From positions 257,362,001 through 257,426,000 of the forward strand of contig OZ024743.1 of assembly GCA_964016885.1 (NCBI GenBank): a DNA stretch of 64,000 nucleotides, written 5' to 3'. Source of the DNA: Eledone cirrhosa (lineage: Eukaryota). A program made the position numbers and the translations under genes. The notes beneath the pieces are model-generated. The model did not search any database. It saw only the letters and a program-made list of their open reading frames with translations, and was not told where the DNA came from. Shown piece after piece: positions 1 through 56,249 of this stretch (its first letter is position 1; each line of letters starts with the position of its first letter).

Positions 1-521
1 GCAGAGCTCAAGCCGGTTCGACGGTTATTTCTGGACTAGAGTAAGAGTTTTTTAGTCTGGTAAATAAATAGCCGAATTTTTCAAGGGGTACTTCCTTATA
101 TGGGAAGATTGTAGTTGTCAAGAGGATTGGTCAAAATGTGTAGCAGACAGAGAAAGATGCCGTGTAGATTTCACTTTCTACGCTTGACCGGCTCTACCCA
201 CTCCCCTATCGTTCTACAGGCAAGTTCAGCCATCCCCACTCCACAACCACTGCCATGATAGACTATTCTGTGTCTGCTACAAACTTTGACCAATCCACTT
301 GACAACTACAATCTTCCCACATAAGGAGGTTCCCCTTAAAAAGTTCGGCTATTTATTTACCAAACTAAATCAACTCTTACTTTAGTCCAGAAATAGCCGT
401 CGAAACGGCTTGAGCTCTGCCGTCGGGGTCATACTTTCTCATATTACCCACTCTACTACTCTAAGTATTGAGTACTCTGGTGCATTATGGTCCATCTGGT
501 TCCTTACCACAACTCCTTCGT
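1..521. mobile_element. Fold-back element (inverted arms ~1-152 and ~268-420), truncated by the window edge and ending at a (TA)n tract; probably PLE terminal-repeat derived
   Basis: GCAGAGCTCAAGCCG...GTAGCAGACA at the start is the imperfect reverse complement of TGTCTGCTAC...CGGCTTGAGCTCTGC ending at 420. Same layout as the other TA-flanked palindromes here. Confidence 0.6.
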
Positions 522-596
522 TATATATATATATATATATAATTCAAGAAAGAAGAGTGACATGGTTGGCTATACAATAAGGGCTTTATTCACATG

Positions 597-703
597 GCTG
601 ACAATTGTTTCTTTGATCTGGTAGGTCTAGAGTTCGCTAATCGCTTGATGTTGCGTCAATCGATCTCCAATACTTTGTTTATAACCAGTCGTTTCATCAG
701 AGC
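597..703 (-). ncRNA. Type I hammerhead ribozyme motif with long structured stem II
   Basis: Minus strand reads GCT-CTGATGA-[~80 nt]-GAAA-CAATTG-TC-AGC: intact core, stem I GCT/AGC, palindromic stem III typical of PLE HHRs, GUC cleavage triplet, AATAAA just downstream. Confidence 0.7.
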
Positions 704-805
704 GTGCGTAAGTGAGGAAAATACTCAAGGCATGGCTTTTATAGAGGAGTGGTGTTAGACCAGAACAATAATATCAATAATAAAATAACTAGATACTGAA
801 TATCG

Positions 806-838
<33 letters not shown>

Positions 839-1149
839 AAGTTTGTCCTTCATCAGTGGTCTTCCAACCGTCCTAGGCATTTCATCGCTTTAAAGACCAT
901 ATACCTCAGGTTGGTGCGAGCAACGGCTAACAAAAGTCGTTGGGACACGTAAATAAAGGGGACGGTAGGGTAAACAAACAAAATGGTTTAAGCAACAGAA
1001 AGTGATGAAGAAAGAGACAAGTCCCAGATTTCTATGAATATAAATTCGGTGAAATTGTGAACGAGAGAATAAAGACCATCAAACCTGGTTGAAATGTGAG
1101 CAAGGAAGGAATTTCGCACAGGTCTAACGGGAGGAAGAATATATATCTA

Positions 1150-1182
<33 letters not shown>

Positions 1183-1199
1183 GATATTCAGTATCTAGT

Positions 1200-1255
<56 letters not shown>

Positions 1256-1284
1256 GTGGTTACACAACAGTTAGTTCACCATAC

Positions 1285-1322
1285 GGAGAACAATTGTTTC
1301 ACTTTAGCCTATCCTCAGCTCC
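1285..1322 (-). ncRNA. Minimal hammerhead-like motif
   Basis: GGAG-CTGAGGA-TAGGCTAAAGT-GAAA-CAATTG-TT-CTCC; stem II pairs poorly. Confidence 0.6.
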
Positions 1323-1514
1323 TAATGGGCATAATTATACGGTACAGGAAGGACAACCGTATAAACGCGCATGCGCAGAAACGCGTCACTTCACACAGGC
1401 AATACTAAAATGCGTGCGAGAGGTGTAAGGGAGATAACTGCGAAAGTCCGAAAAGTTTTTAGTTGATAAGAAAAAATATTGATGTTGTTACAATAATTCA
1501 TTCAATCCGGAGGT

Positions 1515-1960
1515 TTGTAGTTATGCAATAGGTGTTTCGAGACGTGTGGACGACGTGTGAAAAATTCATTTCTCGTGTTTAGGCAATCACTATTGCATAA
1601 TCTCTTTAGAATATTTATTCGTTCGTCAATACACAGTCCACACGACGGATTTCCCCTTGCGTATGGCTTGGACTTAGTGATGGCTTTCCATTGAATGGAG
1701 TAGTCTATACTTGAGTCCTTGAGGGACCATACGTGACTCGCGAGTTTCGTGGATGAACGTCTGTCCGGGTACCTAAAGTTCGACTGATGGTTCAGGAAAC
1801 GTTCCTTAAATCAGCCCTCCGCCTAGCCCACGTGGGATTTGACCTCTTGTGGTTGGTTTGATCGGTTGGAAGTGACCACAGCTTCATAAATTACAGCTGG
1901 TGTGTTGCATTGCTGTTGAAGGGGGCAAGCTTCGGGCTTACGGCAAGAGCACCCTGGTGG
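1515..1960 (-). pseudogene. Degenerate PLE GIY-YIG endonuclease (CxCx5C linker, Naiad-like)
   Basis: Manual translation GCSCRKPEACPLQQQCNTPAVIYEAVV...SHVG*AEG*FKERFLNHQSNFR...TKLASHVWSLK...IQWK, with stops and frameshifts. Confidence 0.8.
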
Positions 1961-2014
1961 AGTGTTGCTCCTAGGGCTCCTGGTGATTCCTGTTCCGTAT
2001 GACCATGCCCATTA

Positions 2015-2052
2015 CGAGCTGAGTATCCGCTAAGATGAAACAATTGTTCTCG
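2015..2052 (+). ncRNA. Minimal hammerhead-like motif (variant core CTGAGTA)
   Basis: CGAG-CTGAGTA-TCCGCTAAGAT-GAAA-CAATTG-TT-CTCG; inverted partner of 1285-1322. Confidence 0.5.
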
Positions 2053-2146
2053 GTATAGTGAACTAACTGTTGTGTAACCACTTCTACCTAATTCGTCCCA
2101 TGGACTGAATGCTCTACCAGTACGGATATTACCTCCAGTGTTCTAC

Positions 2147-2210
<64 letters not shown>

Positions 2211-2233
2211 ATGTATATATATATATATATACG

Positions 2234-2274
<41 letters not shown>

Positions 2275-2460
2275 AAAAGGTAAACAGAAATAACAAAACA
2301 ATCGGTACAGTATATGGAAGGGATATATTAGGTTAACGCTTGATATAGCAGGAAGAGGGTCTTAACGTTTTGGAGTCTAGTCCTTCATAAGAAGAAAGAA
2401 TGAGATATAAGATAGATTGAGAGGACGGGCGGGATTGAAATGGAAAAAATGTCTTTAGGT
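2275..2460 (-). mobile_element. Short PLE-terminus-like unit with decayed HHR (2360-2394); second copy at ~29450-29600
   Basis: Minus strand CTT-CTTATGA-AGGACTAGACTCC-AAAA-CGTT-AAG, and ~140 nt of clear similarity to 29455-29597. Confidence 0.55.
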
Positions 2461-2552
2461 AAAAATAACAGGTCCATTCATGTTGACATCTCTTGCAAAT
2501 ATATATATATATATATTTGAAGAGATGTCAACATGAATGGACCTGTTATTTT
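2461..2552. repeat. Near-perfect palindrome centred on (TA)n
   Basis: AAAAATAACAGGTCCATTCATGTTGACATCTCTT ... (TA)n ... AAGAGATGTCAACATGAATGGACCTGTTATTTTT. Confidence 0.9.
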
Positions 2553-2587
<35 letters not shown>

Positions 2588-2797
2588 GATAACAAATTAT
2601 CGTTATAGGTAATCCAGTTAGAGGTTGTGAATACTCCGTATTGTGGATAGTTTTAACGTGCAGCGTTGTTTGACTCAACAAGAAGTTTCCTTGGGTAGCG
2701 AGTTTGTGAGTTCTCAAGAATTCTTATTCTTGGAGTAATAATAGTAAAAGGGTGAACAATAACATGATCAACACTACAAAAAGGGTTTTATTTACAG

Positions 2798-2903
2798 TAT
2801 TAACAATTGTTTCATTGATTAAGTTGTCTAAAAATTGCTAATCACTTGAAGTTGTGTCATTCAATTTTAAATACAATGTATGCTTAACCAAATCATCAGA
2901 AAA
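2798..2903 (-). ncRNA. Hammerhead motif with long structured stem II (homologue of 597-703)
   Basis: CTGATGA-T-TTGGTTAAG...CTTAATCAA-T-GAAA-CAATTG-TT-AAT; stem I weak; AATAAA downstream. Confidence 0.6.
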
Positions 2904-3509
2904 ACTAATTAAAATTATACACAGCGTTTGTAATATACTAGGAAAATTCAAATCACAACATCAGTAATAAAGAAAGAAAAAGAAAAAGAGAGAGAGAAAA
3001 AGAAAGAATAAAAAAGAAAAAAAGATAAAGAGAAAATAATAAATAAATAGGTAAATAAGTTTGGAAGCCTCGACAATACAAATGGGTAAATCTCCGGATA
3101 ACAAGATCCGGTGGTGGAGAGAGAGATGTAAGTGGGTGTACGTTGAGATGCGTGGCGTGTATAAGACGTGTACAGGAATGAAGGAAAGAGTATAAAGGAT
3201 AAAATAAAAATAACAACACGAGAGAGGGAGGGATTTAATTGTCCCTATATATTTCGGATTCACATCCATCAACTGGGTTTTTTTTTCCGGGGTGGGGGAA
3301 AGGTTGTCTGTCGGAAAGGTGCGAAACGCGTCCTCCGCTGTTTGTTGTTTTGAATAAATAAATAGTAATAAATAAGTTAGAATGAAGATGATAAAAAATA
3401 AATTAAAAAATGTATATGTGCAAAGTGAACATAATATGATTGTTGAAAATAGTTGTGGTGCTGGTGGTTAAAATATAGAGATGTGATGGTATAAACATGA
3501 AAATACTAA

Positions 3510-3566
<57 letters not shown>

Positions 3567-3730
3567 TTAAATTAATAAATTAATAAATTAGAAGTTATGT
3601 TAGAAGTGAAGAGAATACGATAGGATATAATGTAAGAGGTGAAATAGATTTAGGGAAAGACAGTGAGAGAAAAGTTAGGAGATTATGATGTTGATTCAGT
3701 GATTAGTTGATTTATTGACAGTTAATAATA

Positions 3731-3868
3731 ATTGTTTCTACTTTTGGCACAAGGCAAGCAAATACCCAGTACATTACTGGTACTTTATTTTTTATCGACC
3801 CCGTAAGGATGAAAGGCAAAGTTAACCTCGGCGGGATTTGAACTCAGACCATAAAGGGCCGTAACTCT
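3731..3868 (-). mobile_element. tRNA-derived SINE family A (Nin/Deu-like central domain, (ATT)n tail), 5'-truncated
   Basis: GAGTTCAAATCCC B-box plus GCCTTTCATCCTTACGGGGTCGATAAAA on the minus strand; many copies in the window. Confidence 0.85.
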
Positions 3869-4149
3869 TTGCTGTAAAGTGACAGTTACATAGTGCCGGT
3901 TCATCGATGCGGTTTTATATGCTGTTATGTATGGGCTGAGATTTGGGTTTGTTGATGTTTTGTTGTGATGCGTTTTGACATGTGTGTGGTTACGATGTTG
4001 TTATACGTTTGTGTTTTGTATTTGGTGTTATGGTGTTTGTTTATAGGTTATTTTTATTAGAGATTCTTATAGTTAATTTTATGTATGTGTGAATCTATGT
4101 TGGTTGCAGTCGAGTAAGAATTTTTCTTTTTCTCTTTTCTTTTTCTCTC

Positions 4150-8235: not shown

Positions 8236-11200
8236 TTATATTTCTCTTAGGTCAGTATTGTTTGTTTGGGTGTTGTTATTCCATTCATTTTTTCTAAGTT
8301 CTATTTCGCTGGCCTCTCTGATTTGCCTATCTGTTGGGTCATTTCTATGTTTAGATATTATTTTAATTTCTATGTTGTCTATATTACCGCCATGTTGTTG
8401 TCTGGCATGTTCGATTAGTACTGAACCATTTTTTCTTCCTTTTAGTTCCCCCCAGTGTTGGTCTATCCTTTCACCTATGTTACGAGCTGTCTCGCCTATG
8501 TATGTTGTTGTCATGTTTCTGCAAGTACCCTCTGTACATCTTATGCTATAGACTACATTTCTAGTTTTACAGTTTATCCGGGGTTTTACTTTACATATAA
8601 TACATTTCCTATTAGTACAGTGGGTTTTCTTAAAAGGGTATGTTTTGCTGATCAGGGATTTTATGGTGGTTTCTGGCTTTTCTACCACCTTAATCTTTAA
8701 GTGGGTCTTTCTCAGGGTCTTTCTACACTGGTTAGCTAATTTCCCTCCAGGGGTAGCATCCACGAACATGACACTCTGGTATCTCTGGTTGTCGTACCAT
8801 GAGGTGGCTTTCCCTATCTTATGTTTAGTCCTATCTAAGTTATTCCATGATTTGCTCCTGTATAATGGGCAAATTCCTTTCATGTCCAGTTCTATGAGGG
8901 TCTTATACTTCTCCGTGGCTCCTTCGTATACTCTGATTCTGTCTCTTTGGTTGTAGCCAGAGAACTGCATGCGGTTGATGAAGTGTTGGATGTGTCTTTC
9001 CATTTCTGTTGGGTCGCACATGCGGGAGACGTTCTTCATCACTCGTACCAAATCTGCGATCAGAATATTAAACTTAGCACTACTGGACATTGCTGAGTTT
9101 TTGAGTATCAGGTATTTAGAGGCCATGGGTTTAGCGTAGTGTGAGTGGAGAATTTGGGCTCTCTCGTCTATAGTGTTAATCCAGAGTTCCGTGTCTAATA
9201 CAGGTAGTCTATTATTAGGGTGTTTGGAAGGGTAGTCGATAGTTACAGTTATACTCTGGTGTATGGAATTAGCTATCTGCTGGATGCTTTCCATTGTGCT
9301 ACATTCAAAGTCATACTTGTTAGTACTCTCTAGTGGGGATGTCCTTATTACTATATTAATGTTGTCTACATAACGAGAGTACATGAAGAGGTCTATGGAG
9401 CTCTCATCAAGGAGATATTTAAGTCTCCTTTCCCACCATACCATAAAAAGGTTGGCAACGGCACCAGCTATGCTGACGCCAATGGCTGCCCCCTCATTTT
9501 GGGTGTAGATCCTCTTGTTGAATTTGAATATGTGGCCCTTTAGGGTAGTTTTAATACTAGCCCCTATTGCATGTGCAACCATTTTTCTTACCTGATCATT
9601 GTTTTGGGGGTTCCGTATGGCTTTGGTCCACCCAATCCACCTTCCCATGGGAGTCTTTTTTGCCATTGAGTTTATGGCGGGGGTCTACCTCTTATGGGTC
9701 TACTGGAGCAGAAACGGCTAAGGTCATGGCTGTCTAGGTAGTCAGTGTCATAGGTAAGTCTAAGTAGGAGGCCCAGTTCGTCTATGTCGACGTGCAGAAC
9801 TCCACCTCACTCTCACTAATCATCTCCACACATTTTTCCACAGCAAAATCAATGTTAATGGATGGGTATAGTGATACCACATCCATACTGCCTATTATGC
9901 AGTTGGATAGGTTTTTATTTTTGTTGCACTCACTGATTCTGCTGAGGAGGTCTTCTGTACTGTCACATACATCTAGGGACATCTTGATTACGGGGCGTAT
10001 AACCATTGTGAGGAAGTAGGAGATCCTGTAGTTGCTAGCGATATTGGCTCCACATACAGGTCTTGTTGGTGGTCCTGTTGTCGGGTTGTCGAGTGTCTTA
10101 TGGTCTTTGCGGAGCCCATACAAGGGTGGTATGCCATTGTTAGACGCCTGGCAGTTGTTGGCAGTGCGTCTGCTTGGCTTTAGGATGTCAGTCCACATCA
10201 TCATGTGAGCGTTGAGGATCTTCTCTCTCCCCTCATGTATTTGCTGTGTAATTTCGCTCATGTTGGTGATGTGGGGTTGCATAGCCTTGATGTAGTTCAG
10301 CATGCTGTCTATTGACATCCTACCAGACTTATCCGTGGGTAGACATACTACCTCACCATCACTTGTGCGCTGCTTGAGGCTAACTAATCCTTCTACAGGT
10401 TTCCTTCCAAGTTGTTGGATCTCTGGTCAGCTTTGTCTCTTAGTATATCGGTCTACTATGTCTAATATTATTTCTAGCTATGGTGAACTGTGCCTCTGTC
10501 TTGTCATCTATTTGTTGTGGTATACAAACTCTTTTATTAAAGCGTAACCTCGTAGGATAGATATTACCCATCTGATATGTTTTATCAGCTGGATTGAAGA
10601 ATAGTTTCTCTAAGGGGTTGTCATTATGTCTATCGTCATAGTTGTGTGTGTTGCTATTATTGTTATTATGGTGGGTGTTGTTGTTCCTATCATTAACATT
10701 ATTATTATTGTTATGATTGCTAGATGTATTGTTGTTATGATTGTTAGATGCATTGCTGTTATTTTCTCTATTGTTATTGTTGTTGTTACTGTTATTTCTA
10801 CCATTGTGGTTGTTACTTTTATTATTATGTTTCTTGTTTTTGTTGTTGTTGTGTTTATCACAAATGTTCCTACACGTATTATTTCTATTATTACTACTGT
10901 GGTTGTTGTTGTGTCTGTCGTTAATGTTTCCATTATTATTATTATTGTGGTTGTTGTTGTTGTTCTGTCTATCGCTAATATTATTACCATTATTATTATT
11001 ACTATTTCTCACTCTCCTGTTATTGTTATGACTATTACTATTATAGCTGTTATTTCTATACTCAGAGTTATTGCTTATATTATTATTGTTGTTGTTATTT
11101 ATTTTCGCATTCCAACGTATTTTTGTGAAACACTTTTCCAGTTCCGTTTTACCCTCGATTGGATTAATCTTTTTGTAGATAGCAAATGTTGGTCTGAGCT

Positions 11201-11670
11201 GTAGAACCTGTTGTTCTTGTTCACTGATTAAAGTGTTCCCATAAATATTTATTGTGTGGTCTTTTGGTAAATTCTGCCGGTAATGCTATGTCCGTCCGTC
11301 ATACGGATATTGTTGATGTTATCTGGGTATTTTTGTGAATTTTCTATTTTCCTTTCTTCTAGTTTTTTCTTCTTCATCCATTCTAATTTCTTATTGAAAT
11401 GTCTAGTGCATTCGTTTTGAGCGTATTTCGTCTCACGTCGCTCATGAGTTCATCTATCTCGTTTGGTGTGGTGAGATTTCGAACGTCCTTAACGTTAATG
11501 CGTTTCTGTTTGTAAAGTTCGTTAACTTTCGTATATGTTATTCTTTTCATATTGACTGTTAATTTTCGTCGTTCAGCTTGTGTTTTGTTTAATAATAAAT
11601 TATTTACTTGTTTTGATATGTTTGTTGTGTATATTTTGAAGGAAACACAGTGTTTTAAGAAGGTAAACAT
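8236..11670 (-). pseudogene. PLE polyprotein (N-terminal region with Asn-rich tract, reverse transcriptase, Cx4CxxC linker, GIY-YIG endonuclease), frameshifted
   Basis: TDKSGRM, LYGLRKDHK, RPVCG, MDVVSLYPSI, GAAIG, RYVDNI (YVDD mutated), LPVLD, CTNRKCIIC, NVVYSIRC...YIGETAR...RIDQH across ORFs 8236-9666, 9782-10318, 10440-11012 and 11383-11670. Confidence 0.92.
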
Positions 11671-25135: not shown

Positions 25136-25498
25136 AGCTAGTATTCTGTGGGCACTTGCTGCTACTTATTGCATATATATATATATATTCATTAGCAATA
25201 GGCAGATCTCACACAATGCAGCCTCGACAGAAGAATACTGCTCCACTATGGCAGACAATTGATATACCCAGGACACCATAGTGAAATACCAACATATGGA
25301 ACATTACATTTATGTAACATTCTTTCCTTATTTTAATTTATATTTCTTTTGAAGTTCCGTGAGCTGCTCTATTTCTACCTATGTTAATTATTTTCAACTG
25401 AACCAGATCAATAATGATATATAAAAATTTGATCCAGAAATATTATATGGAGTAGCGAAACAATTGTAAACAGACATTATTATTATTAATATTATTAA

Positions 25499-27154: not shown

Positions 27155-27206
27155 GATAAGCTGACAGATCTCTGTTTCGTACTGTTGGTACTCCTCAGAG
27201 CTTACC
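27155..27206 (-). ncRNA. Canonical type I hammerhead ribozyme
   Basis: GGTAAGCT-CTGAGGA-GTAC-CAACA-GTAC-GAA-ACAG-AGAT-CTGT-C-AGCTTATC: three complete stems and a GUC triplet. Confidence 0.9.
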
Positions 27207-27514: not shown

Positions 27515-27566
27515 GGTAAACTCTGAGGAGTACCAACAGTACGAAACAGAGATCTGTCAGCTTATC
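27515..27566 (+). ncRNA. Canonical type I hammerhead ribozyme (one stem I mismatch)
   Basis: GGTAAACT-CTGAGGA-GTACCAACAGTAC-GAAACAGAGATCTGTC-AGCTTATC. Confidence 0.87.
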
Positions 27567-29600: not shown

Positions 29601-29886
29601 GTTAAGAGAGAGAGAGAGCGAGTATGTGATTCAGTAAATCACTGGTGGTGGTAGCAATATGAGCACTTGATGCACAGACAGATTGTTTATAATAACAGTA
29701 ATGATATCCATTTATTATGGCTAAGCATTGTGCCTTGCTATTCTGGAGTTTCACCTATACACTTGCAGAATCATCAGACAAGACTTCACCATAATAAATG
29801 AATATGTATACACTACCACAGTACTGAGTACTTTTTCTCATGTCTGTCAATAACACATGTATATATATATTTATATATATATATAT

Positions 29887-55778: not shown

Positions 55779-56249
55779 ATATATATATATATATATATTA
55801 ATTTATAATCCTATAAAGTGAATTATCTCTAATATGCAAACATCTCAATGAAAGGATAAAATATATTAATAAATCATCCACTCAGAGAAGATTTTAAATA
55901 TATTAAACTTAACCAAAATCTCTTTTTGAGGGGGTATAAGCCAAATCGGCTAAAGTTGGCTTTAATTTATACCCCAACCATTGTTTCTGAAACTCAAGAC
56001 ACAACATCAGGAATTCCAAGATATTGGAACAACCAATATTGGAAGAATTTCAATTTCTTCATTGGGAGGTGATTTCTTCTTAGAAATAAGGGGACAAGTT
56101 GAAAATATAACATACATAAAATTACATCGTTAGAGATCATGAACGAGGTGAATATATTCCACTCAAGGTGACATATTGAATTGTCATATTGTCCTAATAC
56201 ATTAAGTAGGAAATATTCATACATTAATTCTGCATTGCAACACATTGTT

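Follow-up and report, generated by a model that had tools for sequence, protein, structure and literature searches.

Predicted hammerhead ribozymes with an 80-nucleotide, module-bearing stem II in terminal repeats of a Hydra-clade Penelope-like retrotransposon of Eledone cirrhosa

We analysed a 64,000-nucleotide (nt) stretch of the Eledone cirrhosa genome (assembly GCA_964016885.1, contig OZ024743.1, positions 257,362,001 to 257,426,000 of the forward strand; hereafter the window), which carries two predicted hammerhead ribozymes of a Penelope-like element (PLE) with an unusually extended stem II. A first-pass annotation, made from the sequence alone, had placed two minus-strand hammerhead copies with an insert of about 80 nt here, and both are present where it put them (Table 1). 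In copy 1, CTGATGA (700-694) is followed by an 82-nt spacer (693-612) and GAAACAATTGTC (611-600), and in copy 2 CTGATGA (2899-2893) is followed by a 79-nt spacer (2892-2814) and GAAACAATTGTT (2813-2802). The stems described in the first-pass annotation are found in both spacers, each of which folds better than its shuffled versions on the ribozyme strand (z of -3.5 for copy 1 and -2.9 for copy 2; opposite strand, -1.4 and -0.8). The stem II of copy 1 consists of a basal helix, an A-rich 5' bulge, a first module, a helix of 8-9 base pairs (bp), a second module and an apical hairpin, with an unpaired AAC/AAA between the core and the basal stem. Stem I of copy 2 amounts to just 2+1 pairs, and its U·U-flanked core is like that of many Hydra hammerheads in File S2 of Craig et al. 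2021 (PMC8557442). AATAAA, earlier placed about 10 nt past the cleavage site, begins 10 nt after the predicted cut in both copies (590-585; 2792-2787); of 71 copies tested, 57 carry it no more than 24 nt from the cut. Both copies have the palindromic stem III ACAAUUGU; its conservation is no independent evidence, because stem III was selected for in the searches.

To place these copies in the 3.0-Gb genome, exact patterns were counted, with reversed patterns as controls. CTGATGA-Nx-GAAACAATTGTH gave 729 matches for x=5-35, 257 for x=36-66, 3,919 for x=70-100 and 94 for x=101-131 (x=67-69 lay outside the ranges), compared with 0, 1, 0 and 2 for the respective controls. For this stem III type, spacers of 70-100 nt exceed those of 5-35 nt fivefold, so most of a class can escape hammerhead searches with a bounded stem II length. 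Sorting of the first 87 distinct long copies gave families A (57), B (20, with a branched stem II), C (6), D (2) and E (1), one being a false long copy; two further families have long inserts, of about 58 nt in H and about 100 nt in I. Both window copies belong to family A, whose stem II is a rod of 77-83 nt, compared with 10-30 nt in Hydra elements elsewhere, which bears out the earlier remark on its length. A genome-wide collection of homologues, as the first-pass annotation had proposed, returned 8,346 matches to the family A pattern TAGAC-N10-16-GAAACAATTGT against 12 for the control, giving a family size of at least 8,346. Family F (L072, L159) was rejected as a long-arm candidate, being a hammerhead with a 20-nt stem and an upstream decoy core.

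We then characterized the host element from the open reading frames (ORFs) upstream of the motif. These contain RWK and DKT motifs (IRWK and ADKT in loci L093, L095, L103, L114 and others), a CxCX5C linker reading CNCHLPDKC, plus, at the C terminus, a GIY-YIG region with CGLC..E..LLN..CRH (L029, L113, L117 and others). RWK, DKT, CxCX5C and CxxC..E..N..CRH are given as marks of the PLE Hydra clade by Craig et al. (PMC8557442). Likeness to the Hydra proteins of that study was judged by eye, and the nearest named protein matches came from Argonauta hians. At 30 loci chosen by protein alone, a family A hammerhead lies downstream on the same strand in 27 (22 with exact stem III, four of these partly deleted, and 5 more by profile), 616-1,185 nt past the ORF end, or some 700 nt after the stop. 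A second sense hammerhead lies about 270 nt before the ORF start in 3 of the 12 loci extended upstream, and the repeat-to-repeat distance at the one locus measured is 3,260 nt. This is longer than the 'under 3 kb' to which the Hydra clade tends, a tendency that is not a strict criterion. Since full copies carry the motif both after the stop and before the AUG, one transcript can hold two copies 3.26 kb apart. Judging from the linked coding regions, the motif is a terminal-repeat type I hammerhead of a Hydra-clade Penelope-like retrotransposon, in agreement with the PLE origin suggested in the first-pass annotation. A tree of endonuclease ends from genome copies and unnamed homologues placed the A and C groups as sisters (0.997); it mixed two protein regions, and this grouping alone was used. 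A longer basic linker in the protein was discarded as a correlate of the long arm, as it was also seen by eye in the families of L008 and L039.

For the structural analysis, 124 profile hits yielded 99 full-length distinct copies, of which 93 were kept after gappy and identical rows had been dropped. The 3' ends of these elements fall at (TA)n, 50-69 nt past the predicted cut in 53 of the 93 copies and 210-249 nt past it in 20, and a (TA)4 run occurs within 400 nt in 86 copies at two clustered distances. The stretch between the two end positions is the 5' untranslated region (UTR) of the element. Both ends coincide with TA-like RNA bases, suggesting priming by microhomology with the (TA)n target.

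Changes in stem II were then mapped onto a tree of the copies. Over 19 proposed stem II pairs, changes on branches leading to at least three copies kept pairing in 27 of 36 cases, compared with 29 of 98 for private changes (Fisher p=3e-6; counts are means over 30 parsimony runs). All six shared double changes that began from a paired state kept pairing, as opposed to 0-0.5 in slid registers. In an alignment of 53 copies, pairs form in 86.9% of cells, both sides change in 15 of 23 pairs, and the covariation score is 0.354, compared with 0.201 for shuffled and at most 0.11 for slid versions. G·U occupies 222 cells and A·C 32 over 15 pairs in the 93 copies (for one of the 15, 52-69, re-registered to 52-70, the G·U and A·C counts are 60 to 3). 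That G·U is tolerated seven times more than A·C points to selection on one RNA strand. Single decayed copies fold modestly (median z -1.4), the sense strand being the more stable in 66 of 93. From these comparisons we conclude that the stem II pairing is under selection as RNA and is conserved across subfamilies, with the limits that structure and tree were drawn from the same columns and that the subfamilies are few. The earlier claim of a selected structure with compensatory changes thus holds for the shared changes as a set, but not for individual pairs: in an R-scape-like G-test with average product correction and a tree-based null, no in-register pair of the 93-copy alignment fell below E=1. 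The off-register pair 41-79 alone passed (E 0.017), while the true pair 42-79 had an E of 1.25.

The most fixed positions of the rod are those that are mismatched or flank a bulge. Shared changes are absent from 20 of the 82 insert columns, and 16 of these lie in or beside two copies of a small module, made up of a normal pair, one A·G mismatch, a bulged base that varies and a U-A pair (5'-ANU-3'/5'-AG-3'). Module 1 (columns 36-40/80-84) is intact in 88 of 93 copies and module 2 (columns 46-51/71-73) in 82, both without shared changes, and 11 nt, or about one helical turn, separate their A residues. Constant sequence at non-canonical positions is what a recognition site would be expected to show. 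The module was noticed after inspection of the data, and we infer its register, because fixed pairs cannot show covariation; module 1 could instead be a bulged-G motif. A folding-based search found the module in 24 of 30 sampled inserts of family A, 6 of 6 of family C (lowest-energy fold) and 10 of 28 of family H, with 0/30, 0/6 and 1/28 in the antisense controls. The apical loop AAC(A/T)TCAA, which the first-pass annotation took to be conserved, varies across the family (2.35 shared changes per column), and an 18-nt deletion removes the apical hairpin in 7 of the 21 deletion copies among the matches listed. Of the flanking A(T/A)TGA and ATTAG, likewise described as conserved, A49, U51 and A71-G72-C73 are fixed and the rest is not. 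Deletion variants are rare (24 matches), and none was seen to spread, except possibly the apical one.

Comparison of the modules with known RNA motifs gave partial likeness at most. A selenocysteine insertion sequence has an AUGA/GA quartet, a helix of 11-12 bp and an AA loop; here AUGA occurs in some copies only and is followed by 3-6 bp, and this candidate was rejected. A kink-turn has tandem sheared GA/GA pairs after a 3-nt bulge; this candidate, first noted for family H, was rejected as the 3' strand reads AG, not GA (columns 71-72). The GUA/GAC of module 1 (columns 36-38/82-84, fixed) resembles the AGUA/GAC core of the sarcin-ricin or loop E motif. In contrast to that motif, the base before GUA (column 35) is U in 57, A in 21 and C in 15 of the 93 copies, G36-C84 and U37-A83 can pair normally, and module 2 lacks GUA.

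Inspection of the ribozyme core in 35 protein-picked copies, whose extraction required the 3' core, showed C3 in 34, G5 in 35, A6 in 34 and G8 in 33, with G never at H17; variation fell on N7 (11), U4C (9) and A9U (7). Across the 93 copies, position 17 is C, U or A, with G once. The stem I pairs form at 8-110 in 86, at 7-111 in 85 (CG, UA, UG) and at 6-112 in 78 copies (AU, GC, UA). The stem I covariation, the N7 variation and the position 17 pattern suggest that the hammerhead fold is kept. The active fold is predicted to be rare unaided (pair probability of stems I and III 0.03-0.06), and helix II is a rod in place of the capped 4-8 bp of type I hammerheads. Pair 10.1-11.1 at the base of stem II is U·U in 35, A·A in 32, G-C in 8 and G·U in 7 copies; U·U at this place is reported as compatible with activity (PMC3088659). 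The A·A pair, U4C (14 of the 93 copies) and A9U speak against full activity; both U4C and A9U are nevertheless documented in working natural ribozymes (PMC3088659, PMC10085705). One subfamily (L101, L106, L107, L110, L112, L126) combines CUGAUGU (A9U) with G-C at the stem II base, and other subfamilies share U4C.

Rfam gave no match at gathering thresholds in the window, and at E<=10 over 400-3100 it gave microsatellite-driven matches only and no hammerhead. No description of such an insert was found in the papers searched, though supplements and repeat databases could hold one. Thus, a hammerhead variant with a stem II of about 80 nt is apparently undescribed, as the first-pass annotation had supposed. 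It is nonetheless a variant of the known PLE hammerhead and not a new ribozyme class. With the Hydra-clade hammerheads described by Craig et al. 2021 (PMC8557442) it shares a type I core near the 3' end, a short stem I, a palindromic stem III, a frequent U·U beside the core, (TA)n targeting and the protein motifs. The stems II given there for Hydra elements, including the octopus Hydra-1_oBim, have 3-7 bp and loops of 3-10 nt, whereas the rod of family A adds two fixed modules to its greater length; the longest in File S2 of that study, about 50 nt, belong to two non-Hydra spike-moss elements flagged as deviating. The minimal PLE hammerheads of Cervera and de la Peña 2014 (PMC4209133) have the same dimer-type architecture and covarying families, with a proposed excision and circularisation of unit RNA. 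A helix II of 7-8 bp is already called larger than usual in that paper, and a descriptor of its type would presumably not span an 80-nt insert. We also scanned 59 of 77 metagenome Hydra-like loci, those that reach the protein end; 27 gave a hammerhead, all with spacers of 10-30 nt, and among 26 of the remaining 32 viewed by eye there were 10 more short cores and no long one. Of 7 known long controls the finder recovered 4, and the contigs are often cut short, so the long form may occur elsewhere. Pattern matches in viral contigs were set aside as chance (at most 25.6 bits with the family model in the 41 of 80 listed loci that were scored, compared with 115-118 for the window copies).

The closest functional parallel is the Anolis Poseidon element PAc (Frangieh et al. 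2024, PMC11167929). There the hammerhead is reported to cleave only with the element protein, a predicted dimer, whose binding region lies within 172 nt counted from where stem II begins, and reverse transcriptase (RT) starts at two nearby sites. As in family A, the hammerhead of PAc lies just upstream of the two RT start sites that define the tail, and the published account likewise gives no sign of ends at the cut site (PMC11167929). In PAc, however, stem II is short and the hammerhead opens the ORF, with the cut 26 nt past the AUG, whereas in family A the AUG is about 270 nt downstream and the rod is long and noncoding; the tail measures about 165 nt in family A and 30-40 nt in PAc.

Of the explanations considered, we tentatively favour one to which we would give slightly less than an even chance: the rod is a binding handle for the RT-endonuclease of the element itself, which also helps a weak ribozyme to fold as a dimer. 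This is favoured by analogy with the Anolis element, where the hammerhead needs the protein and adjoins two RT start sites (PMC11167929). The palindromic stems III of the two repeats would pair, yielding the active fold as a dimer. With one helical turn between them, the two modules would point to the same side, where the protein, which may itself be a dimer, would recognise them. Once bound, the RNA would be marked for reverse transcription starting at the pair of sites close by, and the weak ribozyme would be helped to fold; the unit-length RNA cut out in this way may circularise. Among the roles raised in the first-pass annotation, an RT-binding site is accordingly retained as a best guess by analogy, and a switch gating cleavage has found little support. 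A stricter version, in which the modules bind an RT-endonuclease dimer and only bound RNA forms the dimeric hammerhead, excising and closing a 3.3-kb circle as a more-than-unit-length RT template, is a good deal less probable, at perhaps a minor chance. If true, it would represent the first defined cis-recognition element of a PLE, elaborated several times in this lineage. The question at stake is how PLEs recognise their own RNA and what purpose their weak hammerheads serve; family A offers a discrete, mutable candidate element (two modules of 6-7 nt carried by a rod next to the RT start sites), and the genome also holds short-arm relatives that can serve as natural controls.

Besides the lack of a significant in-register pair, several observations weigh against the RT-endonuclease handle. 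Hydra elements with stems II of 10-30 nt transpose without any rod, and the folding-based search found the module in 0/20 inserts of family B, 0/3 of D, 0/1 of E and 0/3 of I. A·A beside the core is the state of subfamily A1, that of copy 1 (32/93), and A9U occurs in one subfamily (8/93), so some successful lineages may cut poorly. By eye, no pile-up of 5' ends was seen at the cut in 100 of the 123 listed junction-enriched matches. The listed ends spread from -10 to +7, with about 1-5 per position and about 5 at -1/+1; roughly 4 of 10 internal deletions end at the cut, a weak hint of cleavage. Weighing most against the handle, a 50-nt deletion removes the 3' strands of both modules in both repeats of an element on C5, and at least one insertion may thus have come from a template without intact modules. 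This deletion is identical in the two terminal repeats (C5:90568291 and C5:90571551; L089, L449), which suggests that both repeats can derive from one RNA stretch, by a circular template or gene conversion. The variant was found nowhere else and never spread.

Among the alternatives, an RNA-only scaffold is unlikely, if the strongest of the rivals. Here docking of the bulge and modules, either onto stem I or onto the partner ribozyme, would stand in for the loop 1-loop 2 contact and make the dimer active without protein. In its favour, 7-9 bp separate the A-rich 5' bulge from the core, and fixed A·G mismatches are common tertiary elements. Yet the modules, at 20-35 nt from the core, are beyond the usual contact distance; past stem I the subfamilies differ in sequence, though not in the modules, and no covariation between insert and flank stood out in the R-scape-like test. 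Dependence on contacts between stems I and II is described for natural hammerheads (PMC4209133), as such a scaffold would have it. Slightly less likely again is a rod bound by a host factor that acts in translation, stability or export; cleavage would leave the rod at the 3' terminus of a unit RNA with neither cap nor tail, held by stem I near the 5' UTR, like a cap-independent translation enhancer. The cut about 270 nt before the AUG, the reported support of cap-independent translation by type I hammerheads in viral 5' UTRs (PMC13725137), and a motif fixed across families with diverged proteins (A and C, about 44% identical, and H), as fits an unchanging host partner, speak for it. Short-arm Hydra families, however, are translated without a rod, and Rfam scans, which were no dedicated test, turned up no likeness to a known enhancer.

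We regard a folding switch as improbable. The first strand of the basal helix would pair with the CUGAU core, delaying cleavage until the far strand is transcribed 70 nt later. In subfamilies A3 and A4 the 5' strand of the basal helix, AUCAG, is a complement of the core, and folding predictions include this hairpin (pairs 9-13 with 20-24, at a mean probability of 0.08-0.12; fold of L029). In contrast, A1, A2 and A5 lack that form of hairpin, insert bases are predicted to pair more within the insert (0.35) than outside it (0.23), and the fixed distal modules are left unexplained. Tolerated growth from an inverted duplication, with pairing kept just for core closure or by template-switch symmetrisation at the DNA level, is slightly less probable still. 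In its favour, six or more long inserts of this genome (A, B, C, D, E, H) look unrelated, inverted junctions are common among these elements and the covariation rests on few independent events. Against it, the G·U excess points to one RNA strand, the mismatched and bulge-flanking positions are the most fixed, and deletion variants arise yet stay rare.

Table 1 Features of the two long-arm hammerhead copies and neighbouring elements in the window.
Feature	Position	Strand	Details and basis
5'-truncated family A (subfamily A1) element end with copy 1	541..802	-	260-nt short-ended fragment; sequence and comparison
AATAAA past cut, copy 1	585..590	-	sequence
Hammerhead copy 1	597..703	-	stem I GCT/AGC; GAAAC 611-607; palindromic stem III; predicted cut after GTC 602-600
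82-nt stem II extension, copy 1	612..693	-	fold z -3.5; covariation
Module 1, copy 1	625..673	-	G673-C625, U672-A626, A671·G627, bulged 670, U669-A628; putative register
Module 2, copy 1	636..661	-	G661-C636, A660·G637, bulged 659, U658-A638
Short-stem II hammerhead of a different Hydra family	1289..1318	-	11-nt spacer, same stem III; comparison only, outside long-arm family
Copy 2 'tail', element's 5' UTR read beyond the first 3' end	2581..2745	-	comparison with L118 and full repeat-ORF-repeat copies
Hammerhead copy 2 (subfamily A2)	2796..2903	-	U·U adjoining core; GAAAC 2813-2809; predicted cut after GTT 2804-2802; weak stem I
79-nt stem II extension, copy 2	2814..2892	-	fold z -2.9; module 1 2874-2870/2829-2826, module 2 2862-2859/2839-2837
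3' UTR of copy 2 element	2900..3732	-	interruption ~3053-3356; blastn to L118, L094, L037
Broken remnant of family A Hydra ORF (linker before endonuclease)	3867..4119	-	tblastn 63-80% to L113 ORF, E 4e-21

The two window copies represent the two kinds of 3' end. The element of copy 1 stops about 57-59 nt past the predicted cut, within (TA)n, and is 95% identical over 265 nt to L123, which has a Hydra ORF upstream. The tail of copy 2 stops about 216 nt past the cut, also in (TA)n, and is 87% identical to a stretch of L118 whose end is 48 nt before the ORF start. Based on these matches, copy 2 is assigned to the long-ended end of the element whose ORF remnant lies at 3867-4119. Pfam gave no match in four window ORFs. 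In sequencing reads, a pile of ends at 603-606 (four runs, DNA-type data) came from a restriction-site-associated DNA library and fell at AATT, and was taken as a restriction cut. One contig (depth 2.4) with a second organism label spans the insert and was too thin to count.

Other elements in the window include a second Hydra family at 1251-2252, to which the short-stem hammerhead of Table 1 (1289-1318, minus strand) belongs, with an endonuclease end (1502-1975, minus strand) and an inverted partial copy (1987-2086, plus strand), and a 93-nt near-perfect palindrome round a (TA)n run (2461-2553), which probably represents two element ends in inverted orientation. At 25351-25476 (plus strand) there is a decayed copy of family D whose core is broken, and 55968-56071 (minus strand) matches the family A model weakly, at 27.6 bits. 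Further short hammerhead-like cores are found at 27163-27198 (minus), 27523-27558 (plus) and 29748-29777 (minus), the first two forming an inverted pair. A broken non-Hydra Penelope-like ORF at 8236-11285 (minus strand) comprises RT, a Cys-rich linker, GIY-YIG and an Asn-rich N-terminal stretch; it has no Pfam match, and a relative is present in L034.

Elsewhere in the genome, family B (L033 5504-6627, L034, L038 6044-6899, L039 5590-6432) consists of noncoding units, about 730-1,010 nt long and arranged in tandem within (TA)n, whose hammerhead has a branched stem II of 93-97 nt. It resembles a large non-LTR retrozyme, a group described as noncoding tandem units with a type I hammerhead (PMC7229834; bioRxiv 10.64898/2026.07.22.740005). 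In contrast to these, family A is protein-coding, and the family B units, with their branched stem II, exceed the 170-400 nt reported there. For family H (L133-L157, L425-L442), the parent ORF has one distant protein candidate; the family's stem II of 56-62 nt occurs in two subfamilies with different basal helices, GAGUC/GAGC being kept. In families A (including both window copies), C and H and in short-arm families, stem I is followed by AATAAA or a sequence close to it.

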